A stretch of DNA of 64,000 nucleotides from Candidatus Moraniibacteriota bacterium (GCA_049303795.1 JBAQNM010000006.1:717-64716), one strand, 5' to 3'; numbered from the stretch's first letter, positions 3,534-61,110 are shown. Notes: generated by a model not told the origin, from the letters alone. Program-made: numbers and translations.

Positions 3534-4058
3534 TTAATTTTTATACATATCTTTCATTTGAAATAGAACATACCAACCAATAATTGCCCCAATAATACCA
3601 CCAATAATGCCGTGAATAGAAATGATACTTCCAATCAGGCTAACAATACTAACATAAAAAAGCAATCGCCAAGCACTTTTAGTTCGCTTAAACAAACCGG
3701 GTACAGCCATTAATTCCATTACAATAGTAATGACCGCAATGATTAGTGAAATAATAGCCCCGAATCCCCAACCGAATCCATATCCAAGCCCATATCCGCC
3801 CATCATTGCAAATGGCGTAAGAATTGCAGTGAGACCCATGGCTGCCAAAATAATCGGAAGGAGCATGATAGCAGAAAGAATAATCAGGTATGGTGAGACA
3901 GCAGCGATAAATTCCTTAGCTCCCAATGGCAAAGCAAACGGGGCTTTTTTAACCATATATTCTTCCAGAAATGATTCGAATTTATTCAATTCACCTTTAA
4001 AATCTGCCGCATTAGATTTTCCCTTATTTACTTGATCTTCATTTTTTTGTTCGTTCAT
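3534..4058 (-). CDS. Hypothetical small membrane protein with a glycine-zipper (GYGLGYGFGWGFG) segment
   Basis: 174 aa. Several hydrophobic helices and a Gly-repeat TM motif. No family recognised. Confidence 0.45.
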   Translation of the reverse strand: MNEQKNEDQVNKGKSNAADFKGELNKFESFLEEYMVKKAPFALPLGAKEFIAAVSPYLIILSAIMLLPIILAAMGLTAILTPFAMMGGYGLGYGFGWGFGAIISLIIAVITIVMELMAVPGLFKRTKSAWRLLFYVSIVSLIGSIISIHGIIGGIIGAIIGWYVLFQMKDMYKN

Positions 4059-4157: not shown

Positions 4158-4892
4158 CTATTTTTTTGCGATTTTCCAAAGCAATTTAAAATAGCTCAGA
4201 TAAGCATCATGAATATCTTGACTGTCCATTTGAATAGCAAATATTTCCTTGCCGAAAGAAATTAATGTGACGCAATTATGCCAAATTTGAATTGAAATTG
4301 GAGTTGTGTGCTCTTGTCTCAAAAATCTGCATTCTCTATTTATTCTCTTAAGATTTATAGCTTCTTTTCTATATGCTTCACTAAATAATAATTTTGATTT
4401 TATATTTTTGTCTTGTCGCAGCTTATTGCTTTTCTCGAGAATTCCTCCAACTTCCAACATCTTAGTATGCTCCTCTGCTAAACAAGCCAAGATATATATT
4501 TCACTATTGGCTGGCATTTTTTCGTCATTTCGCAAAATAAGTTCGCGATAAGCCTGCGCCCCTTCATAAATTTTTATCTCCTGTCTGTTTGTCTGCCCTC
4601 CGAGTTTTTGATTAATTTCTTTTATAAGATTTTTAGCAATTTGTTCTTTAGTTTTTATATTATCAAAAATATTATCCGGATTAGAAATTTTATAATGATT
4701 GCGTCGTCCTTTTACCACGCCAATTACCATATTTTTTTCTATAAGACCCTTTAAGGCATCATAAATGACCTGACGATGTATTTTCAGTCTTTCAATTATC
4801 GGTCCAACTGTAACCTCCCCAACTTCAAGAAGGGTTTTATAAACTTTTATTTCATTATTAGTCAAACCAAGTTGTTTTAGTTCATTTTCCAT
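4158..4892 (-). CDS. TrmB-like winged-helix transcriptional regulator, paralog 1 of 9
   Basis: N-terminal LGLTNNEIKVYKTLLEVGEVTVGPIIERLKIHRQVIYDALKGL matches the TrmB-type wHTH. About 245 aa. C-terminus ends ...YFKLLWKIAKK, as in the other paralogs. Confidence 0.6.
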   Translation of the reverse strand: MENELKQLGLTNNEIKVYKTLLEVGEVTVGPIIERLKIHRQVIYDALKGLIEKNMVIGVVKGRRNHYKISNPDNIFDNIKTKEQIAKNLIKEINQKLGGQTNRQEIKIYEGAQAYRELILRNDEKMPANSEIYILACLAEEHTKMLEVGGILEKSNKLRQDKNIKSKLLFSEAYRKEAINLKRINRECRFLRQEHTTPISIQIWHNCVTLISFGKEIFAIQMDSQDIHDAYLSYFKLLWKIAKK

Positions 4893-5089: not shown

Positions 5090-5431
5090 ATGACAACATC
5101 AGCTATGTTAAAAATCCATTTCCCTTACGTAAAAATTAACACCTTAAACAATTTAAATGAATTCTTAAAAAGTGAGGAAAATAAAATCCCTAATAATTTA
5201 TGTAGAGGTGGAGGAGGAGATCGCTATTATTTTTGTATTATTGAAAAAATCTCCTTATCTATGGTGTGTGATGAGTCTAAAGATATAGCCTTAGCAATAA
5301 CTTTGACACTAGTCGATGGCTATCACAGTAATATTTTTAAGGATGGCTTTTATCAATATGTGTCTGTTCGTGATAATTTTTTTAAAAAAATATCCGAAAT
5401 TATTGGTGACGACCATCCACTACGGGACTAA
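5090..5431 (+). CDS. Hypothetical protein (113 aa), divergent from TrmB-like paralog 1
   Basis: ORF with upstream AAAGGA-type RBS, followed by a strong terminator. No recognisable domain. Confidence 0.4.
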   Translation: MTTSAMLKIHFPYVKINTLNNLNEFLKSEENKIPNNLCRGGGGDRYYFCIIEKISLSMVCDESKDIALAITLTLVDGYHSNIFKDGFYQYVSVRDNFFKKISEIIGDDHPLRD

Positions 5432-9475: not shown

Positions 9476-10243
9476 ATGAAACTAGACAATATTTTGAATC
9501 TATTTAATATTAGAGAAACAGAGAAAGAAATTTTTAAGATTTGCTTTGAATCTGATGGGATTGGGGCTAGCGAAATTGCCAAAAAAATAGGAATTAACCG
9601 CACTTCGACTTATGATTTTTTGGATAATTTGGTTAAAGCCGGTCTAATCATTGAATCACAAAAACAAGGAGTAAAAAAATTTTACGTCCAAAAACCGGAA
9701 AAAATCGAAGAGCTAATTAAAGAAAAAGAAGGAAAAGTTTCAGTTGCTAAAAAATCGATAGAGGATCTTAAAAATAATTTTTACCAAAATAAAAAAAGAA
9801 TTGCCCCAAAAATGCAGTTCTACGAAGGAAAAGAAGAATTACGACAGATGATGAAAGATTTGCTATTATATCAAAACATAACAATCTATTCATTCTGGCC
9901 AATTGAGAATATTATTCAAGCTCTTGGAAAAGATTTTTACAGAGAATTTCATGTAAAAAGAGTCGCTAGTAACATTAAAATTAAAGTTATTTGGCCACAA
10001 AAACATACTAAGCAAAAAGAGAAGCACTCTTTTCTTGAAGGATCTGAAAATTTCAAAAGAGAAATCAGAATCTTACCTGAAGATATAGACTTTAATCTCG
10101 GCTACACTATTTATAGTAATAATGTTAGATTTATGTCCTCTCAAAAAGAAGGCTACGGATTTATAATTGAGAGCCAAGAAATGGCAGATACAATGAAAAA
10201 ACAATTTGAGATTATTTGGAAAATATCTAAACCCTTATCTTAA
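9476..10243 (+). CDS. TrmB-like winged-helix transcriptional regulator, paralog 2 of 9
   Basis: N-terminal wHTH (EKEIFKICFESDGIGASEIAKKIGINRTSTYDFLDNLVKAGLI). C-terminal GYTIYSNNVRFMSSQKEGYGFIIESQEMADTMKKQFEIIWKISKP is shared with the other paralogs. Confidence 0.6.
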   Translation: MKLDNILNLFNIRETEKEIFKICFESDGIGASEIAKKIGINRTSTYDFLDNLVKAGLIIESQKQGVKKFYVQKPEKIEELIKEKEGKVSVAKKSIEDLKNNFYQNKKRIAPKMQFYEGKEELRQMMKDLLLYQNITIYSFWPIENIIQALGKDFYREFHVKRVASNIKIKVIWPQKHTKQKEKHSFLEGSENFKREIRILPEDIDFNLGYTIYSNNVRFMSSQKEGYGFIIESQEMADTMKKQFEIIWKISKPLS

Positions 10244-17931: not shown

Positions 17932-18510
17932 TTAAATCGAAAATCTCAATCCATGTGCTTCCAAGACATCCCCCAGCTCAGCTAAACCTTTTCGGCCGAA
18001 GTTTTTCATTTTCAACAGTTCACTCTCGGTTTTTTTGGTCAAATCTGCAATTGTAATTATATTGCAATTTCTCAAGATATTTACAACTCTCACTGACAAT
18101 TCATAATTGTCTTCAATCACAACCAGCTGTGAATTATCAAAAGATTCAGATTCCAACTCCCTTGATTTTATCGCAATATTTTCCAATTTTTTCAGCCTAA
18201 GAGGGTTTCTTAATCGCCGGACTGATCCCGCTATATGCACCCTAACAGCTGAAGGCGTTACGCTGTATATCATGGCTATTTCTCTTAAATTATGAGCTTT
18301 ACAATCCAAGCCAAATCTCAATTCTACGACCTCCCTTCGCGAAATCTTATTTGTCCTCTTTTTATTGTTATCGCCAACAAACCCCAGGGAATCAAGAATT
18401 CTTTTAACAATATCCTTATCGCTTTCACTAAGCGCTTTGATATTTTCTCTTGGAATTCCTGTGATTTCTGCCAAAAAAAATGCATATCCTCCTAAAAGCA
18501 TTTTTTTCAT
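17932..18510 (-). CDS. DNA-binding protein with a sigma-70 region-4-like HTH fused to an RNA polymerase alpha-subunit C-terminal-domain-like HhH module
   Basis: RREVVELRFGL...REIAMIYSVTPSAVRVHIAGSVRRLR resembles sigma region 4.2. LSVRVVNILRNCNIITIADLTKKTESELLKMKNFGRKGLAELGDVLEAHGL closely resembles the RpoA alpha-CTD (LTVRSANCLK...ELLKTPNLGKKSL.EIKDVL). Confidence 0.5.
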   Translation of the reverse strand: MKKMLLGGYAFFLAEITGIPRENIKALSESDKDIVKRILDSLGFVGDNNKKRTNKISRREVVELRFGLDCKAHNLREIAMIYSVTPSAVRVHIAGSVRRLRNPLRLKKLENIAIKSRELESESFDNSQLVVIEDNYELSVRVVNILRNCNIITIADLTKKTESELLKMKNFGRKGLAELGDVLEAHGLRFSI

Positions 18511-18619
18511 AATAATCCTCTTTTTATGGTTAAGCTACGGGTTTCTTGCCTATATAAATTGTCAATGAACGGACCCTTAATGTAAGCAAATATCCTTAAG
18601 TTTGTCAATTTTTTAAAGG

Positions 18620-19363
18620 CTATCTATGATTCACATACTGCTTCGACCTTTTCCAGATTATTTCAAACATTGCCGTTAAGGCATTCTTTACTTTAATATT
18701 TTCAATGACAATACACAGACTGTCTTCCGGAATCATAACAACAGTTTTATTTGAAAATAGATAAAGCATAATTTTAAAATCATCAAACATGGCGCTAGTT
18801 CGAATTTGAATTTTGTGATTTTGAATAACAAACTCATCTTTTTCACTGGAAGGAATAATGGTACGGGATTTTATTCCTAGCTTTTTCTTCTCTGTCAATA
18901 AGTCTTTCCAAAAATCATAGCCTAACTTGAAAGCAGAACGAATATCCCCTTCTATTGTTAATAGCTCGTCTTTTTCTGGATTTAAAACGATAATCTCTTT
19001 TAATGTTTCTTTCAGACCCGTGTTTGTATCATAAAATCTTATTTTATTTCCAGCCGATTTTTGCTCAAATGCATTTTCCAATTGAGGCATTAGAGCATCC
19101 AAAAGATAATACTGATCCTTGATTCGTGAGAGCAGTATCTTTGGATTTTTTATATAATACCTCTTTCTTTTTTTGATTATCTCCATGGCAATCAAATCTT
19201 TCTCTGCCATTTGATCAATCACTAAATATAGGGATGTTCTTTTGATTCCTGTATTTTTTGATATTTCCTGAAGAAATTGCGGTCCTTTTTGAAGAAGGGA
19301 AAGATAAATTTTTCCTTGACTGTCAGGCAAGCCAATTTTTTCTAGTTGTTCTTTTGTTATCAT
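18620..19363 (-). CDS. TrmB-like winged-helix transcriptional regulator, paralog 3 of 9
   Basis: N-terminal wHTH (GKIYLSLLQKGPQFLQEISKNTGIKRTSLYLVIDQMAEKDLI). C-terminus ...LTAMFEIIWKRSK. Confidence 0.6.
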   Translation of the reverse strand: MITKEQLEKIGLPDSQGKIYLSLLQKGPQFLQEISKNTGIKRTSLYLVIDQMAEKDLIAMEIIKKRKRYYIKNPKILLSRIKDQYYLLDALMPQLENAFEQKSAGNKIRFYDTNTGLKETLKEIIVLNPEKDELLTIEGDIRSAFKLGYDFWKDLLTEKKKLGIKSRTIIPSSEKDEFVIQNHKIQIRTSAMFDDFKIMLYLFSNKTVVMIPEDSLCIVIENIKVKNALTAMFEIIWKRSKQYVNHR

Positions 19364-19541
19364 AATAATGACGTCAATAATGACGATAAATTTATAATAT
19401 TATTCAATATAACCTTTAAATATAGTATGATATATTATTTAGTTTGTCAAATAAATTGACTAAATATAGAAATAACATACAATCAGACTATCTTTCAATT
19501 GGAAAGATGCACATTAACAATTTATAAAAAGGGAGAATACT

Positions 19542-20660
19542 ATGAAAATAGGAGACTTAGAAAGATTTCAGGCAACAAAAAGATTACCCAAAAGACTTAT
19601 TGAGGATATTCCTGATTTAGTAGCGGCAGTTATTAATCGGGAGTGCAATTTAAGTTGCAAACACTGTGGTTGGGCACCAAAAAATAGTGTTTGCGAAAAA
19701 TATCTCAATAGGGATGGCTGGGATAAGTTCATTGAAAGCTTTTGTCTAGTTGGGAATAAAAAAGAAGAAAAAACAATCGTGATTTCTGGGCGAGAGCCAT
19801 TATATGATCTGGATTCAAGAAAAAAACTCATATCTATTCTATTGAGCTCTCGAAAGCAAGGGATTTATTCCGGATTTATCACAAATGGAATTAATCTGCC
19901 TTTTTTGTTCGAAGAGTATCCTTATTTTATTCCGGATTTTATGGATATCAGCCTTGAGGGGCCAAAAGAAATTAATGATAAAATTCGAGGAGCAGGATCT
20001 TTTGAAAAAACTTTGGCTGGTCTAAAGATAGCTCTTAAAAAAGTGGAAAAATTGTTTATTTCCACCACTGTAACAGCTATTAACATTCAGACTATTCCGA
20101 ATTTTGTTCAGTATTTGGCTCGGTTGGGAGCTAAGCGGTTAGTTTTTCATTCTCTAATACCAGGAGAATTTGTTGCGCCAGGAATTCAGACTGAAGATGA
20201 CGACTTTCTTGAAATGATAAAGAAAATAAATCAATTAGCGATTAAGCTAGAATTAGAACAAGTCATTTTTGATTTATATCCACCGTCTTTTAAAAATTTC
20301 CCCATGGTAATTGAGAAAATAAAGCCGGAAAATCTATTTATTGATAATTATATCGTGATGCCACTAGCTTCAAATGTATTTATCCGATTTGTTAATCTCA
20401 TGGAGTCATACGCTATTTCTTTTCTGGTTTCTCCGGAAGGCTATACTATTACCCCGCTGGAAATGAGAATGATAAATTATCTCAAGAACAAGGAAAATTG
20501 CCATCATGTTCAAAATATTTTGGCTTGGGATGGAAACCCTTATGCTAATGAAATAGTAAAATTGGCAAAAAACATTCCTGATATTTGTTTTGAGCAAAAA
20601 TGTTTCAAATTTTGTCTGGGGCAAAACTCATTTTGCCCATTATCTAAAAACAAAAAATAA
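19542..20660 (+). CDS. Radical SAM enzyme with a C-terminal Cys-rich auxiliary-cluster (SPASM/twitch-like) region. Candidate peptide-modifying maturase.
   Basis: CNLSCKHC (CX3CX2C) at residues about 36-43. GGE-like ISGREPL. C-terminal Cys cluster NCHH...DIC-FEQKC-FKFC-LGQNSFC. Confidence 0.7.
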   Translation: MKIGDLERFQATKRLPKRLIEDIPDLVAAVINRECNLSCKHCGWAPKNSVCEKYLNRDGWDKFIESFCLVGNKKEEKTIVISGREPLYDLDSRKKLISILLSSRKQGIYSGFITNGINLPFLFEEYPYFIPDFMDISLEGPKEINDKIRGAGSFEKTLAGLKIALKKVEKLFISTTVTAINIQTIPNFVQYLARLGAKRLVFHSLIPGEFVAPGIQTEDDDFLEMIKKINQLAIKLELEQVIFDLYPPSFKNFPMVIEKIKPENLFIDNYIVMPLASNVFIRFVNLMESYAISFLVSPEGYTITPLEMRMINYLKNKENCHHVQNILAWDGNPYANEIVKLAKNIPDICFEQKCFKFCLGQNSFCPLSKNKK

Positions 20661-20674
20661 AGGAGGATTGTAAC

Positions 20675-20791
20675 ATGGAAAAAAATAGTACTAAAAAAAT
20701 TGAAGCTGGATCAATGGCTGGCAGTAAAGGTGGAGTCAAGAAACCGCAACAGCCGGAACCGAAGGAGAATGAAGAAAAACGCAAAGAATAA
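20675..20791 (+). CDS. Small ORF (38 aa, MEKNSTKKIEAGSMAGSKGGVKKPQQPEPKENEEKRKE) immediately downstream of the radical SAM gene. Candidate substrate peptide or small protein.
   Basis: Strong RBS AAAGGAGGA 5 nt upstream of the ATG. Followed about 30 nt downstream by a rho-independent terminator. Too short for the supplied ORF track. Confidence 0.4.
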   Translation: MEKNSTKKIEAGSMAGSKGGVKKPQQPEPKENEEKRKE

Positions 20792-20820
20792 AAAATAAAC
20801 CCTAAATATAAACAACCAGA

Positions 20821-20855
20821 AAAGGCTGCGAGTGAAACACTCAAAGCCTTTTTAA
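20821..20855 (+). terminator. Rho-independent terminator (AAAGGCT-GC-GAGTG-AAA-CACTC-A-AAGCCTTTTT), copy 1 of a repeated 3' module
   Basis: Nested stem-loop followed by a T-run. Near-identical copy at 22117..22150. Confidence 0.65.
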
Positions 20856-20942
20856 ATTTGTGTTATCGCCAATATTTCCTAAATCCGAGCTTTAGGATAT
20901 AAAATTATTTATTATTTATATATCGCTTCGACCTTTTCCAGA

Positions 20943-21692
20943 TTATTTTGTTAAGCTCCAAATCAAATCAAATTTGCTTTTCTCGCTTTTAGCTATTTCT
21001 TCACTTTCGATTTTAACGGCAATTAGCTCTTTTTTGGAGGTGAAAATTGCTACTGTATTTTGATATATTAAAACAAAAGATGGGTGATAAAAATCTGCTG
21101 GTAGAAATTTTATTTCTCGTAAATCGCTAGCATTTTTTTCACTCGAAAAAAAATCTTTAGGAAAAAATTCTGCCACTTCTTTCTCAAAATATAAAGCTTT
21201 TATCTTGGAATTATTTTTTATTCTTTCGGGAATATAGTATTTTTGATCATATTCTTGCCCAACTATTTCATAAATTTTTTTGAGAGATCCAATAGCTCGG
21301 ATAGTTTCGTTCATTTTTAATGATTCATTGGCAATTGAAATGTAACCTTCTTTTCCCTCATACATAGTCACTCTCGGCTTGTAATAAGAGTTTTTTTGAA
21401 TAGCATTAAGTTCAGGGATTATTTCATTGACCTCGCTCAATCTTTTTTTTAATTGATCAGAAAGCAAAGTTGGTGACGAAGCAACAAAACGCAAACCATT
21501 GGGTAATTTAAAATTTCCCATCAAACCTTTTTCTTCAAGATTTTTTGCAATCAAATATGCTGAACTTCTTTTAATCCCAGCTATTTTAGCGATTCTGGCT
21601 AGAGGTGCTTCGCCTAATTTCAAACCAGCCAGATATAGTCGTGTTTCTTCATTGCTTAGTCCATAATTTTTCAAAACTTGTTCAATATTCAT
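20943..21692 (-). CDS. TrmB-like winged-helix transcriptional regulator, paralog 4 of 9
   Basis: N-terminal wHTH (ETRLYLAGLKLGEAPLARIAKIAGIKRSSAYLIAKNLEEKGLM). C-terminus ...SKFDLIWSLTK. Confidence 0.6.
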   Translation of the reverse strand: MNIEQVLKNYGLSNEETRLYLAGLKLGEAPLARIAKIAGIKRSSAYLIAKNLEEKGLMGNFKLPNGLRFVASSPTLLSDQLKKRLSEVNEIIPELNAIQKNSYYKPRVTMYEGKEGYISIANESLKMNETIRAIGSLKKIYEIVGQEYDQKYYIPERIKNNSKIKALYFEKEVAEFFPKDFFSSEKNASDLREIKFLPADFYHPSFVLIYQNTVAIFTSKKELIAVKIESEEIAKSEKSKFDLIWSLTK

Positions 21693-21897
21693 ATTGTTGT
21701 TATTTATGACAACAGTATATCATGCTTATATTTAATAGTCAATAGTGGCTTAATTTAAGCAATAATATTACTTTAAATTTAATAAAAATAGTCATATTTC
21801 AGGACATAACTTTGACTAATAGCTACATTTCTGCTAGTATTAACAGTTAATAAAAAAGGATAGTTATTTAAAAATTTAATTGAAAAGGAGAAATAAG

Positions 21898-22098
21898 GTG
21901 AATGGAGACCTACTATTAATAAAACTACTAGCTTCTTTTGGAGTATCCATTATTATGGGAGTTATAATGACACTATTGGATCAAATGTTTGCGGTAAAAA
22001 GCGATATATTATATAAGGTAGCCCTCATGGGGTGCGGAGCGTGTTTATATAAAATTTTTTCCTTTATTTTTCTGTCAGAGGATAAAGATGAGAAGTAG
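21898..22098 (+). CDS. Small hydrophobic Cys-containing ORF (66 aa from GTG, ...KVALMGCGACLYKIFSFIFLSEDKDEK). Candidate precursor peptide or small membrane protein.
   Basis: RBS AAAAGGAG 6 nt upstream of the GTG (the ORF track starts earlier at TTG 21880). Its C-terminal acidic/lysine tail and 3' UTR/terminator are shared with the 38-aa ORF at 20675. Confidence 0.4.
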   Translation: MNGDLLLIKLLASFGVSIIMGVIMTLLDQMFAVKSDILYKVALMGCGACLYKIFSFIFLSEDKDEK

Positions 22099-22116
22099 AA
22101 AATAACATAAACACAA

Positions 22117-22150
22117 AAAAGGCTGAGAGTGAAACACTCAAGGCCTTTTT
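22117..22150 (+). terminator. Rho-independent terminator, copy 2 of the repeated 3' module (AAAAGGCTGAGAGTGAAACACTCAAGGCCTTTTT)
   Basis: Differs from the copy at 20821 by 2-3 substitutions. Flanks are also similar. Confidence 0.65.
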
Positions 22151-22448
22151 AAATTTGTGCGTATCATTGGGCTTAATCCACTTTGCATTTTGTTTTTATA
22201 TATGATTTGCGATTAGAGGTTATCGCATCGCTTCAAAGCCAAAAAGGCTTTCAATCGAAAAACAAGAAAGCAAGAAAAAGCGAGAAGTAAATTTTGATAA
22301 TAAAAAAACGGGCGATTCGCAATGAAATCGCCCGGGTCGTTTAAGTTATAAATTTTTTTAGAAAAATTAACCATATAAATGGATGATTGACCAGCTTTTC
22401 AATCAATTCAATTTTGTACAGACCTTCAAGTTAATCCGCCAGTAATTA

Positions 22449-22697
22449 TTAGATTTCTTTGAACTTTTTAGATTTGCTTTTCACTTTTTTTCTCCTATAT
22501 TTCAAAATGGTGTCTTTTTTATTCTGAAAAATATCCAGAGAGAACGCTATGAAAATAGCTATTAGCATTGTTGAATAAAAAGCTGAGAAAAAACGTATAT
22601 AGGGGTCTTCTGATAAAAAACTAATTGACCCCAAGGTAATTACGCAAACCATGATTATCTCTATACGAATTTTTATTGATTTACTGATTTTTTTCAT
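22449..22697 (-). CDS. Hypothetical small membrane protein (82 aa)
   Basis: Two hydrophobic helices with a lysine-rich tail. Terminator hairpin on the minus strand at about 22300-22340. Confidence 0.35.
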   Translation of the reverse strand: MKKISKSIKIRIEIIMVCVITLGSISFLSEDPYIRFFSAFYSTMLIAIFIAFSLDIFQNKKDTILKYRRKKVKSKSKKFKEI

Positions 22698-22699
22698 TT

Positions 22700-23359
22700 T
22701 TATCTCCTTGGCTTTTCCTCAATAGTTGCCATCAGGTCATCAATTATTTGATTTCCTGATTTTTCCAATAATTCCAACACTCCTTTTGCACCGTAATCCA
22801 ATAATGTTAGCTTGCCTTTATGATAGGAAAAATTTTCGGGGTTAGAAAAAGTGTGTCCGACTGCACCTATTTCTTCTCGGTATTCTTTTTTTGCAACTAT
22901 TTCCCAAAGTTTTCCAAAAGTAAATCTTTTTTTGACATTTCCTCTTTGATAATCGAATTTTATTTTGCCAGCGCCTTCTTCAAAGCGGTAGAAATTTATA
23001 AATCCGAGCGAAAAATACAACTTTGTCAGTAAAGGATGTTTTGTTTTGTGCCAGCATACGGCCTCTCTGTAGTTTTCCATTAAACCTAACGTCAACCATT
23101 CCCATATTATTTCGAGGCTTGAAATAATAGTTGATCTTTTTTCTCCTTTTAAAATATCCTTACAAAGACGACGGAGTTCTTGATATAAAAACAAAAGTCT
23201 TATCCTGGGTATTTTCATGACTATATTTCTTTTTGTCACTTTATTACTAAAATTACCATATTTTTCTTTTCGTATCTCTTTCACAGTTTTACTTTCAAGG
23301 ATAATTATTAGTCGGGTTGTACCTTCACTGCTAAACGTTATTTTCAGTTCATTTATCAT
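22700..23359 (-). CDS. Hypothetical protein (219 aa), divergent from TrmB-like paralog 5
   Basis: ORF only; no recognisable domain. Confidence 0.35.
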   Translation of the reverse strand: MINELKITFSSEGTTRLIIILESKTVKEIRKEKYGNFSNKVTKRNIVMKIPRIRLLFLYQELRRLCKDILKGEKRSTIISSLEIIWEWLTLGLMENYREAVCWHKTKHPLLTKLYFSLGFINFYRFEEGAGKIKFDYQRGNVKKRFTFGKLWEIVAKKEYREEIGAVGHTFSNPENFSYHKGKLTLLDYGAKGVLELLEKSGNQIIDDLMATIEEKPRR

Positions 23360-23426
23360 TTTTTATCTCCTATTTCTAAATAGATTGTTCGTTATGTTTT
23401 TAAATAACTTTGCCAAACGCCAATCG

Positions 23427-23455
23427 TTGACAATCAAGGGAATATACTATAATAT
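23427..23455 (+). promoter_or_regulatory. Putative sigma-70 promoter for paralog 5 (TTGACA - 17 nt - TAATAT), followed by palindrome CGTCA-tcc-GACG at 23477..23488
   Basis: Consensus -35 and an AT-rich -10. An inverted repeat lies between the promoter and the ATG at 23503. Confidence 0.45.
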
Positions 23456-23502
23456 CCAATGTATGTAAATATGTTGTCGTCATCCGACGAACAAGCAAAA
23501 AT

Positions 23503-24288
23503 ATGGATATAATAAAAATCTTAGAAAAAATCAATTGCACGGATTTTGAAGCCAGAACTTTCCTGGCGCTCTTGGAGGAATCAAAAGGCGCGAGCGTTTT
23601 GGGTTTGAGTAAAAAGTTAAATCTGCCTCGTCCTACAATTTATGGTCATATAGAATCTTTGATTGAAAAAGGGTTGGCAAAAAAAGGCGTGGGAGAAACC
23701 GGGGCAGTTTTTTATGCTGAAGATAAGGAAAATATTCTAAGCATTTATAATGAAAAAATTGAAGAAATGAAAAAGGCCCGGGAAAATTTTTCTGAGGCAT
23801 TTAAAAATAAAGATTATGGAGCCACTTATCAGCCAAAATTAATCCACTATTCCACTAAAGATGCTGCCAAATCAATTTTGCGCGATATTTTGAGATCAAG
23901 AGAAAAGGAAACTTATTGGTTCTGGCCTCTCAAAGAAATGCTGAAAGTAATTCCGGAAGAGGTTCTGCAAAATTTTAATGAAGAAAGGGTAAGAAGAAAA
24001 ATTTGGACAAATATACTTTGGCCACCAAAAAGAAAAATTGATATAAAAAAATATCCCTTGCTTGGGCCTTGGAACGAGAAAGAATCTTTGCGCAGGATAA
24101 AAATTTTACCGGAAAATATCGATCAGACTTTAGGTTATGCGATTTATGGCGACAAAGTAGCCTTCATTTCTTCCGATAGGGAAAATTACGGCATGATTAT
24201 TGACAGCCGAGAACTTGCCCAAACTCTGAAAGCTCAATTTGATTATTTTTGGAAAATATCAAGACTTATAAAACAAGAATCAGTCTAA
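23503..24288 (+). CDS. TrmB-like winged-helix transcriptional regulator, paralog 5 of 9
   Basis: N-terminal wHTH (FEARTFLALLEESKGASVLGLSKKLNLPRPTIYGHIESLIEKGL). C-terminal GYAIYGDKVAFISSDRENYGMIIDSRELAQTLKAQFDYFWKISR. Confidence 0.6.
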   Translation: MDIIKILEKINCTDFEARTFLALLEESKGASVLGLSKKLNLPRPTIYGHIESLIEKGLAKKGVGETGAVFYAEDKENILSIYNEKIEEMKKARENFSEAFKNKDYGATYQPKLIHYSTKDAAKSILRDILRSREKETYWFWPLKEMLKVIPEEVLQNFNEERVRRKIWTNILWPPKRKIDIKKYPLLGPWNEKESLRRIKILPENIDQTLGYAIYGDKVAFISSDRENYGMIIDSRELAQTLKAQFDYFWKISRLIKQESV

Positions 24289-24519
24289 CTTATTAAATCA
24301 AATTCTAGATCAATTTATACTATCATACTATTATTAGACTTAATTCATTTCAAACAAGCCTGGAATTAAAAAATTTAACCGAAGAGGAAATGAGTCTTTC
24401 TGTCGAAGAGTTTAGAAAAATCTTTTAATACCAATACTTTTTTACAAAATAAAAACGCACCCAAGGATTTTTTCCTGAGTGCGAATTTTTTTCGAATATT
24501 TTTTTTGGGAGCAGCGTTG

Positions 24520-25050
24520 CTATTTAAACAAGCTCTCGATTTCTGTCAGCGGTTCGAAAATATTTCGCTGGCCTCTGTTGAGCGAAAGATGGACGATTAT
24601 ACATACAAGAAATCTGTCTTTCGCGGAGTCATTTTTGGTGACAAGAAACTCTGAAACATACGTGGTCGTACCCTTGTCAGCCTCTTTTGAAACAACTGAA
24701 TAATCAGAGAAGACGAAATAGATCTCGCCTTTACCGCTTACCCATATTTTTTTTGGAGCCTCCTTGATGCCAGTACCCCTGAATTCATAGAACCAATCAT
24801 CTTTAAGAATCAAATTTCTTCCTTTCGGCGACTGCATGGGAACGTAGACCAAGAATCCAGCAAATTCCCATTCTGCATCCAGGAAAAATTGACCTTTGGG
24901 AGCTCGCATGACGACGTAGTAATCGCAGGTCGTATCAGGTCCTACAAATTTTGCGGCCAGGATATACTGATGAGTTTCCTCACAAAAAGCCGGGGTCACT
25001 ACCAACAAAACGATTGCCAATACTGCCATAACTAAAGTCGTTTTTTTCAT
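24520..25050 (-). CDS. Hypothetical secreted protein (signal peptide MKKTTLVMAVLAIVLLVVTPAFC)
   Basis: N-terminal signal-peptide-like segment. Bidirectional terminator hairpin at about 24456-24495. Confidence 0.45.
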   Translation of the reverse strand: MKKTTLVMAVLAIVLLVVTPAFCEETHQYILAAKFVGPDTTCDYYVVMRAPKGQFFLDAEWEFAGFLVYVPMQSPKGRNLILKDDWFYEFRGTGIKEAPKKIWVSGKGEIYFVFSDYSVVSKEADKGTTTYVSEFLVTKNDSAKDRFLVCIIVHLSLNRGQRNIFEPLTEIESLFK

Positions 25051-28463: not shown

Positions 28464-29210
28464 TCAGATTAAATTTTTAGAATATACTTTTGCTCCACTC
28501 CATGATAACTCATAAACTTGACGCATAGCATCTGCAATAACTCTACTTTCAATAATTATTGACATATTTTCCGTATAATTCATAAAAGCGACTTTGTTTT
28601 TGTATATATTTACTTCAATTTGAGGATTGAAAATTTCTTCAGAAACAATAATTGTTTCTGATAACTCTTTTTTATCTAAGAATTTATGCTTTGTATCCCA
28701 CAAAGATCCTTGTCCAGCAATACGACGCGCCTTAATGTTTAAGTTAGTACGTTTTTCAATGTAATTATAATCCCTAGGAAAACGTTCAAAAAAAGCATTA
28801 GTATTCCATTCTAAAATTTCTCCTGGCTTTTCCCTGAGGGTATCTTCGTAAATATTGTGAATCGCATTTTCTCCTTCAAAAAAAAGAATCTTAGGTTTAG
28901 TTTCATTTTTATTATAGATCGCTTCTAGCTGAGGTAGGTTTTTTTTAATTTCAGCTTGAACTTCTCCAGCTATGCTTAAAAGTTTCTCCGGAGGTTCAGC
29001 TACAAATTTAGTTTTATTTTTTATTATAGTTTTTCCTACAACTCCACGATTTACAAGGTAACCCAAAACAGAATAGGCAGTGGTTCGTTTTAGATTAGCT
29101 TTTTTAGCAATGTCTTGCGCAGAGGATGTGCCTAATTCTAAAGAAGCCAAATAAATTTTTGCTTCATTATGGGAAAAACCAAATTTTTCTAAAATGTGTT
29201 CTATTTTCAT
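28464..29210 (-). CDS. TrmB-like winged-helix transcriptional regulator, paralog 6 of 9
   Basis: N-terminal wHTH (EAKIYLASLELGTSSAQDIAKKANLKRTTAYSVLGYLVNRGVV). C-terminus ...MRQVYELSWSGAK. Confidence 0.6.
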   Translation of the reverse strand: MKIEHILEKFGFSHNEAKIYLASLELGTSSAQDIAKKANLKRTTAYSVLGYLVNRGVVGKTIIKNKTKFVAEPPEKLLSIAGEVQAEIKKNLPQLEAIYNKNETKPKILFFEGENAIHNIYEDTLREKPGEILEWNTNAFFERFPRDYNYIEKRTNLNIKARRIAGQGSLWDTKHKFLDKKELSETIIVSEEIFNPQIEVNIYKNKVAFMNYTENMSIIIESRVIADAMRQVYELSWSGAKVYSKNLI

Positions 29211-36466: not shown

Positions 36467-36500
36467 TAAAAAAGGCTTTCCCATTCGGGTTAGCCCTTTT
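36467..36500. terminator. Bidirectional terminator hairpin AAAAAGGCTTTCCCATTCGGGTTAGCCCTTTTTT. A near-identical copy lies at 59605..59640.
   Basis: Stem GGGCT/AGCCC with an internal CCC/GGG and T-runs on both sides. Confidence 0.6.
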
Positions 36501-46714: not shown

Positions 46715-47473
46715 ATGAACAGAATAGAAAAAATATCCAAGGCACTCAATCTTTCAATTTACGAAGCAAAGATATATATTGCGCTCCAACAAAATGGCCC
46801 TCTCCTGATAAAAACACTTTCTAGACATGCAGAAATTCCAAGAACAACTATCTATACTCCGTTGCAAAAACTCCTCAAAAGGGGATTCGCTTCAAAAACT
46901 GTTTTTGGAAAACGTACATATTATTCCGCAATTCAACCAGAATATCTTCTTGGATTTATTGATGAACAAAAAAATCTTCTTCAGCAAACGATTTTAGAAT
47001 TAAATGGATTGGGAAAAATTCAGTCAGAAAAAAATAATTTTGAAACTACCTTTCATAGTGGAATAAACGGAATTAAAACTGCCGGATTATTTTTTTTACA
47101 TAATACCAAAGAAAAAACATGGTACTCTTTTGAAAACCTAGACTTAATAACAGAAAAGGTTAGTTTTGAGTTTGAAACATTTTATATAAAAGAGCGTGTC
47201 GCAAGAAAAATTAAATCAAAAATGATTCTTTCTTTCTCGGAAAAATCTTTTATATCTAATAATTTTTTAAAAAATGACATAAAAGACCTAAGGGAAACCG
47301 TATTGCTTTCTCAAAATCAATACCCCTTCCAAACAACAGTAGTTGCTACAAAAGGATTGGCACTTCTAATAAATCCCAATGAAAATCCTTTTGCTTTGTT
47401 AATTCGCAATAAACATTTAGCCGATACGTTTATCACTATCCATAAATGTTTATGGGGAAAATATAAAGCATAG
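46715..47473 (+). CDS. TrmB-like winged-helix transcriptional regulator, paralog 7 of 9
   Basis: N-terminal wHTH (EAKIYIALQQNGPLLIKTLSRHAEIPRTTIYTPLQKLLKRGF). Palindrome GACGA-tattg-TCGTC at 46681..46695 immediately upstream. Confidence 0.55.
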   Translation: MNRIEKISKALNLSIYEAKIYIALQQNGPLLIKTLSRHAEIPRTTIYTPLQKLLKRGFASKTVFGKRTYYSAIQPEYLLGFIDEQKNLLQQTILELNGLGKIQSEKNNFETTFHSGINGIKTAGLFFLHNTKEKTWYSFENLDLITEKVSFEFETFYIKERVARKIKSKMILSFSEKSFISNNFLKNDIKDLRETVLLSQNQYPFQTTVVATKGLALLINPNENPFALLIRNKHLADTFITIHKCLWGKYKA

Positions 47474-47545: not shown

Positions 47546-47636
47546 ATGAATAATTTGCGAATTTTAGGCATCGATCCAGGCACCACGACAACCGGTTGGG
47601 CGATTATTGAAAAAAATGGCGATAAACTACTATGAT
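47546..47636 (+). pseudogene. Truncated duplicate of the ruvC 5' end (MNNLRILGIDPGTTTTGWAIIEKNGDKLL*)
   Basis: 35 nt (gggcgattattgaaaaaaatggcgataaactacta) are identical to ruvC at 49102, and the upstream ataatataaacata is shared. The reading frame ends after 30 codons. Confidence 0.7.
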
Positions 47637-48302: not shown

Positions 48303-49046
48303 ATGCTTTTAGAAAAATTACAAATTGCTGGGTTATCAGAAAAAGAGGCTAAGGTATATGTAGCTGTTTTGGAATTGGGAGAGGCAACAATCGCCGAAAT
48401 TACAAAAAAATCCAAGATTAAAAGATCCACTATTTATGACATACTTAATACTTTAAAGGAAAAAGGCATAATAAGTCAGACTCGCCTCAACAAAAGACCT
48501 ATCTTTTTAGCAGAAAATCCAAAAAAAATGCTTGAAAAATTGGAGGAGAAAAAAAGAGGACTCGAAGAAGCTGTACCAGAGTTGCTTTCGATTATGAATC
48601 TTTTGGATAAGAAACCGAAAATTCGCTACTTTGAAGGAATAGAGGGAGTAAGAGAGGTTTTTGAAGATACACTTCGATATCCCAATCAAGAACTTCTAAC
48701 CTGGTTTTCTCATCCTAATATTAATCTTGGTGAAGATTTTTTTTGGAAATATTACAATCCAGAGCGCTTAAAAAGAAAAATTTGGGGCAGGGCAATCGCC
48801 ACTGATACTCCGCAAAACAGAGCTCTGAACGAAACTTTTGGAAATAAATGGCTAGCAAAAATGAAAATTTCCTCCAATAAATCTCTTCTTAAACTTGATA
48901 TCGAAATAAAGATTTATGGGAAAAATAAGGTTGGAATTGTTTCATACAAAGAAGATCTGGGAATTGTCATTGAAAGTAAAAAAATATATGACGGACTAAA
49001 AGCAATCTTTGAAGTAATGTGGGATTTATTGCCGGAAATAAAATAA
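48303..49046 (+). CDS. TrmB-like winged-helix transcriptional regulator, paralog 8 of 9
   Basis: N-terminal wHTH (EAKVYVAVLELGEATIAEITKKSKIKRSTIYDILNTLKEKGII). C-terminus ...LKAIFEVMWDLLPEIK. Confidence 0.6.
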   Translation: MLLEKLQIAGLSEKEAKVYVAVLELGEATIAEITKKSKIKRSTIYDILNTLKEKGIISQTRLNKRPIFLAENPKKMLEKLEEKKRGLEEAVPELLSIMNLLDKKPKIRYFEGIEGVREVFEDTLRYPNQELLTWFSHPNINLGEDFFWKYYNPERLKRKIWGRAIATDTPQNRALNETFGNKWLAKMKISSNKSLLKLDIEIKIYGKNKVGIVSYKEDLGIVIESKKIYDGLKAIFEVMWDLLPEIK

Positions 49047-49101: not shown

Positions 49102-49629
49102 ATGAAAAAAAAATCTGAAACTTTAAACTCAACCTTGCGAATTCTTGGCGTTGATCCCGGAACAGCCACGACTGGCTGGGCGATTATTGAAAAAAATGGC
49201 GATAAACTACTACCTTTAGCCTATGGCCACATCAGTACTTCGAAAGACAACACTGACGACGAAAGAATTTTTGAGGTTTCCAATGATCTTGCAAAAATAA
49301 TTCAAAAACACAAACCGACTGAAGCCGCTATTGAAAGTCTTTTCTTTTTTAAGAATCAAAAAACCGTCATCCAAGTTGCCCAGTCAAGAGGCGCAATTCT
49401 CTTGACTTTATGCCAAAATAGTGTTACAGTGTCCAGTTATACTCCGCTCCAAGTCAAGCAGGCCTTGACCGGATATGGACGAGCGGAAAAAAAACAAATG
49501 CAGTTGATGACTAAAAATATTCTGCATCTAAGCTCACTACCCAAGCCAGATGACGTGGCAGATGCATTGGCAATTGCGGTTTGTCATGTTAATAGCAGAT
49601 TTCTAATCAATTTAAAAAAACACTCATGA
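49102..49629 (+). CDS. ruvC: Crossover junction endodeoxyribonuclease RuvC
   Basis: ILGVDPGTATTGWAII start, catalytic Asp/Glu pattern, and 175 aa. Confidence 0.9.
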   Translation: MKKKSETLNSTLRILGVDPGTATTGWAIIEKNGDKLLPLAYGHISTSKDNTDDERIFEVSNDLAKIIQKHKPTEAAIESLFFFKNQKTVIQVAQSRGAILLTLCQNSVTVSSYTPLQVKQALTGYGRAEKKQMQLMTKNILHLSSLPKPDDVADALAIAVCHVNSRFLINLKKHS

Positions 49630-59604: not shown

Positions 59605-59640
59605 TACTAAAAGGCTTTCCCGTTCGGGTTAGCCTTTTTA
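59605..59640. terminator. Bidirectional terminator hairpin AAAAGGCTTTCCCGTTCGGGTTAGCCTTTTTACTTTTT, repeat of the element at 36467
   Basis: 24/26-nt identity with 36470..36496. Confidence 0.6.
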
Positions 59641-60381: not shown

Positions 60382-61110
60382 ATGAAAAAAGAACTACAAA
60401 AGGCACTCTCATCTCTGGGAATAAACGAAAAACAAACCAGTCTATATTTGGCTTGTTTGGAATTGGGCTCAGCCAGTATTCAAGAATTAGCACAAAAATC
60501 CGGCATCAAAAGAACCAGCATTTATAATTTTCTTAAAGACCAGAAATTTAAAGAATTATTTTCTGAAATTGAAGAATCAGGCAAGGTTTTGTTAGTCCCC
60601 CAAAATCCTAAGATGCTCGTAGAAAAAGCCAGAAAAAATTTAGAAGAAATTAAATTTGCCTTGCCGGAACTTATGAGTATTTTTAATTTGCCTTCCGAGA
60701 AGCCACGCGTCCGATTTTATCAAGGTGAGGAAGGAATTAAAACGGCCTACCAAGATCTTCTTTTGGAAGGAAAAACCGTTTATGGTTTTTCCGATTATGA
60801 AAAAATGTTTGAGAGTATGCAACATTTTGATATGTGGAGAATTCCCAAGGAAAGAGTTAAAAGAAATATTAAGTTTTTTTGCATTGCAAAAAATGGCCCA
60901 ATGGGCCAAGAGGTGAAAAGAAAAGATAAGGAAGAATTACGCGAAACAAAACTCGTAGAAAATATTCAATTTGAAACAGAGATAAATATTTATGGCAATA
61001 AAGTGAGTCTCATAAGTTTTCGTGAACCTTTCGCCTGCGTGATCATAGAAGATCCCGCTATCTCTCAAACTCTAAAAAGCGTCTGGCAAAGTTGGTGGAA
61101 TTTGCTTTAA
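60382..61110 (+). CDS. TrmB-like winged-helix transcriptional regulator, paralog 9 of 9
   Basis: N-terminal wHTH (QTSLYLACLELGSASIQELAQKSGIKRTSIYNFLKDQ). C-terminus ...LKSVWQSWWNLL. Confidence 0.6.
   Translation: MKKELQKALSSLGINEKQTSLYLACLELGSASIQELAQKSGIKRTSIYNFLKDQKFKELFSEIEESGKVLLVPQNPKMLVEKARKNLEEIKFALPELMSIFNLPSEKPRVRFYQGEEGIKTAYQDLLLEGKTVYGFSDYEKMFESMQHFDMWRIPKERVKRNIKFFCIAKNGPMGQEVKRKDKEELRETKLVENIQFETEINIYGNKVSLISFREPFACVIIEDPAISQTLKSVWQSWWNLL

Follow-up and report, generated by a model that had tools for sequence, protein, structure and literature searches.

A duplicated, probable bidirectional terminator behind two small genes of a Candidatus Moraniibacteriota genome

Bidirectional Rho-independent terminators occupy the gaps between convergent genes and consist of an A-tract, a GC-containing hairpin that is stable on both strands, and a T-tract. 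Short extragenic palindromes at gene 3' ends, also possible terminators, are known as repetitive extragenic palindromic (REP) sequences and bacterial interspersed mosaic elements (BIMEs), which go together with REP-associated tyrosine transposases (RAYTs). Multicopy precursor genes of ribosomally synthesized and posttranslationally modified peptides (RiPPs), e.g., those of the cyanobactins and prochlorosins, have conserved flanks and variable cores. Here we describe a pair of near-identical hairpin modules, A (20805..20866, plus strand) and B (22104..22164, plus strand), in a window of 64,000 nucleotides (nt), the whole stretch of DNA analyzed, which derives from a metagenome-assembled genome of Candidatus Moraniibacteriota (Patescibacteria/Parcubacteria group; GCA_049303795.1, JBAQNM010000006.1:717-64716); all copy counts refer to these 64 kb of the source genome. 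Module A follows a 38-amino-acid (aa) open reading frame (ORF) at 20675-20791, a precursor-like peptide gene with an AGSKGG motif that stands behind a radical-SAM gene, and module B follows a 66-aa ORF at 21898-22098. Both modules resemble the bidirectional terminators in their A-tract, GC-containing hairpin, T-tract, location in convergent-gene gaps, and stability on both strands; they differ from them in a 2 × 2 internal loop, in an unusually conserved sequence, and in forming a near-identical local pair. With REP/BIME sequences they share the form of a short extragenic palindrome at gene 3' ends, a possible terminator function, and, in the relative L015, a RAYT-like neighbor, whereas A and B are only two, are in direct orientation, and have no RAYT in the window, and the RAYT of L015 has another palindrome. 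The likeness to multicopy RiPP precursors is seen in the relative L100, where a pair of AGSKGG genes has identical ends and differing middles, and in the motif number, which varies from one to four between relatives; here, however, the 3' end and the terminator are conserved rather than the leader, and the second gene of the window is no precursor. In our preferred reading, the pair is a duplicated bidirectional terminator of which A is probably ancestral and B a later local copy that replaced the 3' end of its gene.

A hairpin module behind two small genes

The repeat search returned an ungapped direct repeat of 46 nt at 93% identity (20817-20862 and 22114-22159), and the 43-nt core, with up to two mismatches allowed, gave 2 matches in the window compared with 0.00 in 100 shuffled sequences. 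Gapped blastn lengthened the match between the two copies to 58 nt at 89.7% identity (20805-20862 versus 22104-22159; E = 6e-16) and recovered no third copy of the module in the 64-kb window. We combined A, B, and the orthologous module of L015 in a covariance model and searched the entire 64 kb with it, all filters being switched off. A scored 87.6 bits and B scored 82.7 bits; the next matches were the reverse strands of A and B at 25 to 27 bits, and generic terminators reached 24 bits at most. The exact module pattern had 0 matches in 185,579 species-representative genomes, and in the metagenomes of the JGI database it matched the L015 contig only. The two copies lie 1.3 kb apart in the same orientation; by our own arithmetic, the chance that two randomly placed copies fall that close is about 0.04.

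In module A, an A-rich tract is followed by the core hairpin (20824-20848; GGCU-GC-GAGUG-AAA-CACUC-AA-AGCC), a T-tract (20849-20853), and then AAATTTGTG; in module B, the core hairpin is at 22121-22145 and the T-tract at 22146-22150. Both copies read AAAA-GGCU-(GC|GA)-GAGUG-AAA-CACUC-AA-(A|G)GCC-UUUUU-AAAUUUGUG, and the two substitutions of B relative to A in the 43-nt core, a C>A change in the internal loop and the replacement of a U-A by a U-G pair, are structure-neutral. Toward the 3' side the homology reaches about 4 nt past AAATTTGTG; it fades on both sides, and neither a target-site duplication nor a common flanking tetranucleotide was found at A and B. The original prediction had described a near-identical 3' module of about 60 nt running on from the stop codons. 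Indels of roughly 9 and 2 nt separate the stop-to-hairpin spacers of A and B, so that this description is valid for 46 to 58 nt but not for the entire distance from the stop codon. Other parts of the prediction agree with our results: the copies do follow the two named ORFs; the common ancestry of a copied, portable terminator is borne out by the repeat search, the shuffles (0 of 100), and blastn; both copies fold into stable hairpins; and, in place of an abundant generic repeat, there are 2 copies in 64 kb and a database hit in L015 only.

The core hairpins have folding energies of −10.9 (A) and −11.6 (B) kcal/mol on the plus strand, with 93 to 94% of the ensemble in that fold, and of −11.7 (A) and −8.7 (B) kcal/mol on the minus strand. 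With the A/U tracts included, the modules come to −19.4 and −20.6 kcal/mol (z = −5.4 and −5.6), and their reverse strands, followed by U-rich runs, to −18.2 and −19.5 kcal/mol. The five-U run UUUUUAAAUUUGUG abuts the 3' side of both hairpins, which lie 28 nt (A) and 18 nt (B) past the stop codons of the 38-aa and 66-aa ORFs, and the upstream A-rich stretch falls within the common 58 nt and would thus give a U-tract on the opposite strand. For both copies the next gene downstream is convergent. Module A faces a TrmB-family regulator gene (20943-21692), downstream of which no other terminator-like structure was seen. Module B faces an operon of 82-aa and 219-aa genes, for which the terminator scan gives a separate strong terminator (22309..22334, minus strand); B sits behind it as a predicted second stop for minus-strand transcripts. 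Thus, both modules have what is expected of an intrinsic terminator, namely a stable stem-loop, an adjacent U-tract, a site after the stop codon, and, for the other strand, an upstream A-tract, and by form and placement we interpret them as bidirectional intrinsic (Rho-independent) terminators. A search of 18000-25000 against Rfam gave no match at E ≤ 1 at either hairpin, and a reading of the module as a small RNA appears to be without support.

History of the two copies and competing explanations

Between L015 and the window, the radical-SAM locus is 80.5% identical at the DNA level and the hairpin with its T-tract agrees at 43 of 43 positions, while the precursor gene with its tail and the stop-to-hairpin spacer are only 42 to 65% identical. 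All relatives that we inspected have a terminator here, either behind the precursor gene or behind an additional small ORF that comes next. As commonly happens with terminators, the sequences have drifted; the outer stem is in part the same. Because of the 43/43 identity in L015, copy A is probably the ancestral terminator of the radical-SAM/precursor operon, and the copying probably ran from A to B. Another relative, L104, is closer to the window as judged by the gene fpg (76% aa identity versus 57% for L015), and its homologue of the 66-aa gene has a different tail (PFPWPIKRK versus LSEDKDEK) and an unrelated terminator; the covariance model had no match above the generic level in L104. As B is absent from the orthologous site in this closer relative, it is probably a secondary local copy of A.

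We envisage that copy A would end the transcripts of the radical-SAM/precursor operon on the plus strand and those of the convergent TrmB gene on the minus strand. During a rearrangement of this TrmB-rich region, copy B would have arisen 1.3 kb from A by nonreciprocal recombination or partial duplication, replacing the original 3' end of the 66-aa gene; it would now end that independently promoted gene and back up the termination of the 219/82-aa operon. Site-specific insertion of a cassette between A and B, as at an integron attC site, was considered and rejected, since the hairpin has no core of the GTTRRRY type and the ancestral downstream flank, a REP-like palindrome as in L015, follows A and not B. 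Several points weigh against the proposed history. Termination is read from the shape of the element, and a simple terminator scan listed neither A nor B because their stem is interrupted. The direction from A to B is drawn from two relatives, and a loss of B in L104 is equally parsimonious by event count. The base-for-base conservation of A, loop and internal-loop bases included, exceeds what a plain terminator needs. Finally, the counts cover 64 kb, and a modest number of copies may exist elsewhere in the genome. With these points taken into account, we assign a probability of roughly 0.7 to a duplicated bidirectional terminator with A ancestral and B a later local copy.

An all-against-all comparison of the intergenic sequence of the window (9.7 kb) gave only two noncoding pairs of appreciable length (31 to 43 nt), both of them terminator hairpins, and two other matches, which are exact words of 15 to 19 nt. 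The members of the second terminator-like pair (36470-36500 and 59609-59639; 94% identical, AAAAGGCTTTCCC[A/G]TTCGGGTTAGCC) are separated by 23 kb, and each lies in a convergent gap; one is preceded by a 128-aa gene and the other by an 874-aa PBP-like gene, both unrelated. Among the relatives, L014 has a 53-nt terminator pair at 92% identity (3741-3793 and 4258-4310) after adjacent 175-aa and 103-aa genes outside the radical-SAM operon, and L098 has a similar pair at 80%. In L100, the precursor and a second AGSKGG ORF (37 aa) have the same last 7 codons, the same terminator, and about 190 further nt at 100% identity, and both units come with the same operator layout and a regulator of the type encoded beside the radical-SAM operon of the window (TrmB_18620; see below). 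In L099, L101, and L102, an EDEKKNEN tail, a hairpin at the stop codon, and the terminator are common to the precursor, a 58-aa ORF, and another small ORF. This last ORF has a conserved N terminus (MGNPFT), with homologues that follow precursor genes in L011 and L097, and the 58-aa ORF is preceded by 160 nt copied, at 96% identity, from the radical-SAM promoter region. The stop-codon hairpins (2565-2640, 5195-5270, and 5520-5600 in L099; also in L101 and L102) have the form GAGAACGAU-UAAAAAAU-AUCGUUCU with the stop codon in the loop; one copy in L099 shows two compensatory changes from A-U to G-C, and the terminator after the middle copy is decayed, which fits read-through into the next ORF. 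Judging from these alignments, the copying of 3' ends onto neighboring small genes is recurrent in this gene neighborhood, and in the window, the final codons of the precursor gene may or may not have been part of the copy. For reduced genomes, such reuse of terminators or 3' ends would be a simple route by which new or relocated small genes obtain transcription ends.

The last of these points leads to a possible, though doubtful, alternative in which the copied segment was longer and comprised the last six to eight precursor codons, the stop codon, the spacer, and the terminator; the 66-aa protein would then have a transplanted tail, and all but the hairpin would have evolved fast. An E/D/K-rich tail is a trait of the precursor family, whereas the L104 homologue of the 66-aa protein (P0028) is without one and its homology to the 66-aa protein ends 8 codons before the stop. 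The stop codons before A and B align in frame and are both followed by AAAATAA, orthologous tails and spacers have diverged next to a hairpin that is 100% identical, and the gene ends shared by two AGSKGG genes in L100 and by three unrelated small ORFs in L099 are precedents. Against this, the two coding tails of the window agree at 12 of 30 nt, which is the chance level (25 to 50% of other gene ends match as well as they do), the similarity of the stop-to-hairpin spacers has P = 0.36, and no transplant is needed for the tails of small membrane proteins to diverge readily; since true orthologous tails are themselves only 42 to 65% identical, the coding-tail comparison is without power. The original prediction had seen the two genes as 3'-homologous cassettes with similar acidic/lysine tails and had linked them functionally. 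E/D/K-rich tails do exist and the terminators do have a common ancestry, but no homology is detectable into the coding tails. The functional link is not supported: the presence of a second near-identical terminator pair after unrelated genes means that a common terminator does not imply a common function in these genomes, and the promoters of the radical-SAM and 66-aa units show no similarity. The radical-SAM operator occurs once in the window, and a promoter or operator common to both units was rejected, none having been found. The pair by itself would be a routine terminator copied once and should not be taken as linking the genes. It is unlikely, in our estimate, that at radical-SAM/AGSKGG loci the 3' module (tail codons, stop region, and terminator) has been grafted repeatedly because it is functional, with the 66-aa protein as a recruited partner, although one lineage also has the operon promoter/operator duplicated before a neighboring small gene. 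Were this the case, the module would be a C-terminal recognition tail for the maturase or a means of coordinating mRNA stability and termination; its sharing would mark the small proteins of the system, and the 66-aa protein would serve in immunity or export or as a substrate.

That the hairpin itself functions beyond termination, as a protein or RNase site, a stability element, or a small RNA derived from the untranslated region that coordinates the two small genes, seems very unlikely to us. The conservation of A at 43 of 43 positions, unpaired bases included, in a relative whose Fpg is only 57% identical would fit such a role, as would the recurrence of 3'-module sharing specifically in the radical-SAM clusters of L099/L101 and L100 and the compensatory changes in the stop-holding hairpin of L099. 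Yet Rfam has no match, the module sequences are wholly different between lineages, and the radical-SAM coding sequence contains perfect runs of the same length; the whole radical-SAM locus is unusually conserved (80 to 92%), and recent exchange could explain the identity of the hairpin. In addition, the second terminator pair follows unrelated housekeeping genes, and the 5' region of the B transcript is structurally unremarkable (z = −0.32). A small mobile palindromic element of the REP or miniature inverted-repeat transposable element (MITE) type, spread by a Y1/RAYT transposase, is suggested by the RAYT-like Y1 transposase gene 60 nt from the orthologous hairpin in L015 and by the near-identical pairs of terminator-like palindromes in this genome and its relatives. 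We nevertheless consider it highly improbable: the L015 transposase is flanked by a different palindrome (CCTAAA...TTTAGG) and not by an A-type hairpin, the window has no Y1 gene, and the module has only two copies, adjacent and in the same orientation, with no further ones in the species-representative genomes and only the L015 one in the JGI metagenomes. Thus, neither the dispersed copies (in 64 kb) nor the cognate RAYT flanked by the same palindrome that characterize REP/REPIN elements were found, and the target-site duplication that accompanies the terminal inverted repeats of MITEs is lacking at the A/B flanks, as is a common flanking tetranucleotide. Equally hard to credit is a generic terminator repeat, abundant in the genome after many unrelated genes; the outer stem AAAAGGCT/AGCCTTTT of A and B is indeed reused in the 36470/59609 pair and in the orthologous terminators of L011 and L013, but only A and B exceed 30 bits with the unfiltered covariance model in the 64 kb, and the intergenic comparison yielded no further member.

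The REP-like palindrome of the window, CCTAAATCCGAGCTTTAGG (20878..20896, no strand assigned), is a solo element of the CCTAAA..TTTAGG type that occurs once, 25 nt after hairpin A and outside the duplicated unit. In L015, two such palindromes (2166-2184 and approximately 2873-2891), inverted relative to each other, flank the RAYT-like Y1 transposase gene between the precursor terminator and fpg, and, compared with its L015 counterpart, the window palindrome seems to have a flipped loop.

The radical-SAM operon and its peptide

The operon ahead of module A contains a gene for a 372-aa radical-SAM enzyme (19542..20660, plus strand; Pfam Radical_SAM, E = 1.3e-10) with a CxxxCxxC motif and, near the C terminus, four invariant Cys residues. 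Only 7 close homologues were found among 5.8 billion proteins, and an uninformative scan of the species-representative genomes with the radical-SAM alignment yielded nothing closer than generic, distantly related radical-SAM genes (36% identity at most). A structural model (predicted local distance difference test [pLDDT], 71) has its best matches among solved structures in anSME, CteB, SuiB, and PqqE (template modeling [TM] scores, 0.42 to 0.54). The four Cys residues and the fold matches to anSME, CteB, and SuiB would fit a possible SPASM or twitch auxiliary-cluster domain, but there is no Pfam SPASM match, and the modeled C terminus has a pLDDT of <50. By sequence and model, the enzyme is likely to be a peptide-modifying maturase. 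It shares with the described SPASM/twitch-type enzymes the CxxxCxxC motif, the C-terminal Cys residues, and a constant short-peptide partner and has its best fold matches among them, but it falls below every curated family cutoff, and the peptides of this system have no Cys, Trp, or Tyr and carry AGSKGG instead.

The 38-aa peptide gene (20675..20791, plus strand) starts 14 nt past the radical-SAM stop codon, is preceded by an AAGGAGG ribosome-binding site, and encodes an S-x-A-G-S-K-G-G-V-K-K-P motif and an E/K-rich tail; its codon score is 0.73 bits/codon. Profile searches recovered a family of 12 members with one to four motif copies each, one of which is labeled Candidatus Parcubacteria. 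Every recovered locus has, behind the radical-SAM gene, one or two short ORFs with one to four copies of S-x-A-G-S-K-G-G-[VI]-[KR]-K-P and E/D/K-rich tails, a pairing present in the window and in L011, L013, L014, L015, L097, L098, L099, L100, and L101; S-x-x-G-S-K-G-G is invariant in eight aligned precursors. Some of the peptides begin directly with the motif and thus have no obvious leader. The 38-aa ORF is therefore a genuine member of this precursor-like peptide family, which belongs to a radical-SAM system not described so far, and its acidic/lysine tail is a family trait. Searching the literature for this peptide motif or for mobile terminators gave no usable result.

Divergent from this operon is the gene of a TrmB-family regulator (18620..19363, minus strand; Pfam TrmB), which is 55 to 77% identical to its counterparts ahead of the radical-SAM genes in L013, L099, and L100 and is the conserved partner of the cluster across lineages. 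Two candidate operator motifs, TGACG-N7-TGACG (19369-19385) and TTTGTCAA-N5-TTGAC (19443-19460), are conserved in the aligned loci of the window, L013, L099, and L100; the second overlaps the −35 region, and in L100 and L099 the same motifs also precede satellite small-gene units. The combination of a TrmB regulator, an unclassified peptide-type radical-SAM enzyme, and an AGSKGG peptide makes this a candidate for a new peptide-modification system of candidate-phyla bacteria, and we regard this tiny, undescribed peptide family with its radical-SAM partner as more notable than the terminator pair itself.

The 66-aa gene and its TrmB-rich surroundings

The gene ahead of module B (21898..22098, plus strand) has a GTG start and an AAGGAG ribosome-binding site and would encode a small membrane protein of 66 aa with a CGxC motif and the tail LSEDKDEK. 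A promoter-like site upstream of it (21812..21840, plus strand; TTGACT-17-TAGTAT with an extended TG) was obtained by a consensus scan only. The ORF was not called by gene callers, and its codon score is borderline (0.19 bits/codon; the real genes used as reference reach at least 0.215, and the 95th percentile of spurious ORFs is 0.18). A word-indexed homologue search with it gave no match; an exhaustive HMMER search recovered P0028 in L104, a 64-aa protein that is 51% identical over 43 aa. The gene for P0028 is syntenic, adjoins fpg, and is divergent from the L104 orthologue of the TrmB gene that separates A from the 66-aa gene in the window. Because its homologue is found in the same arrangement, the 66-aa ORF is probably genuine, and we take it as probably encoding a small membrane protein. 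A decayed precursor gene upstream of B was also considered and ruled out: the 66-aa gene has no AGSKGG unit, and the unit profile, run over the whole window in six frames, matches only 20648-20788.

The TrmB-family regulator between the two modules (249 aa; 20943..21692, minus strand; Pfam TrmB) is convergent on A and divergent from the 66-aa gene, and this divergent arrangement recurs in L104, where the orthologue has 83% identity. Mostly past its stop codon lies a 43-nt stretch (20906..20948, minus strand) that is 86% identical to 18621-18663, the 3' end of the unrelated TrmB_18620 gene (…IIWKRSK…), and is out of frame. As L100 has a complete TrmB_18620-type gene at this position, the stretch looks like the relic of a replaced regulator gene, and the region as a whole would be a patchwork of partial copies. 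A weak but nonrandom inverted similarity between 20966-21078, in the 3' part of the TrmB gene at 20943-21692, and 22188-22298, just past hairpin B, scored 30, compared with 11.9 ± 2.1 in shuffled sequences. A TrmB relic downstream of B at 22188-22298 was rejected, having no protein-level support and being lost in the whole-window search.

TrmB paralogues are frequent throughout the window. At least 10 are encoded in the 64 kb, mostly 21 to 32% identical to one another and often divergent from small operons; besides the two discussed above (18620-19363 and 20943-21692), they lie at 4158-4892, 9476-10243, 23503-24288, 28464-29210, 46715-47473, 48303-49046, and 60382-61110, with an additional one upstream of 11541. 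A 78-nt direct repeat (85%; 47555-47632 versus 49135-49212) covers the 5' ends of two genes whose products begin with LRILG[IV]DPGT…GWAIIEKNGDKLL; each of these genes stands just after a TrmB paralogue, which suggests a tandemly duplicated unit of TrmB plus gene. Elsewhere in the window, the 3' end of tRNA-Ser(GGA) is copied exactly over 19 nt (1739-1757 versus 1882-1900), 143 nt beyond the tRNA gene, and this copy could be the scar of an old integration site.

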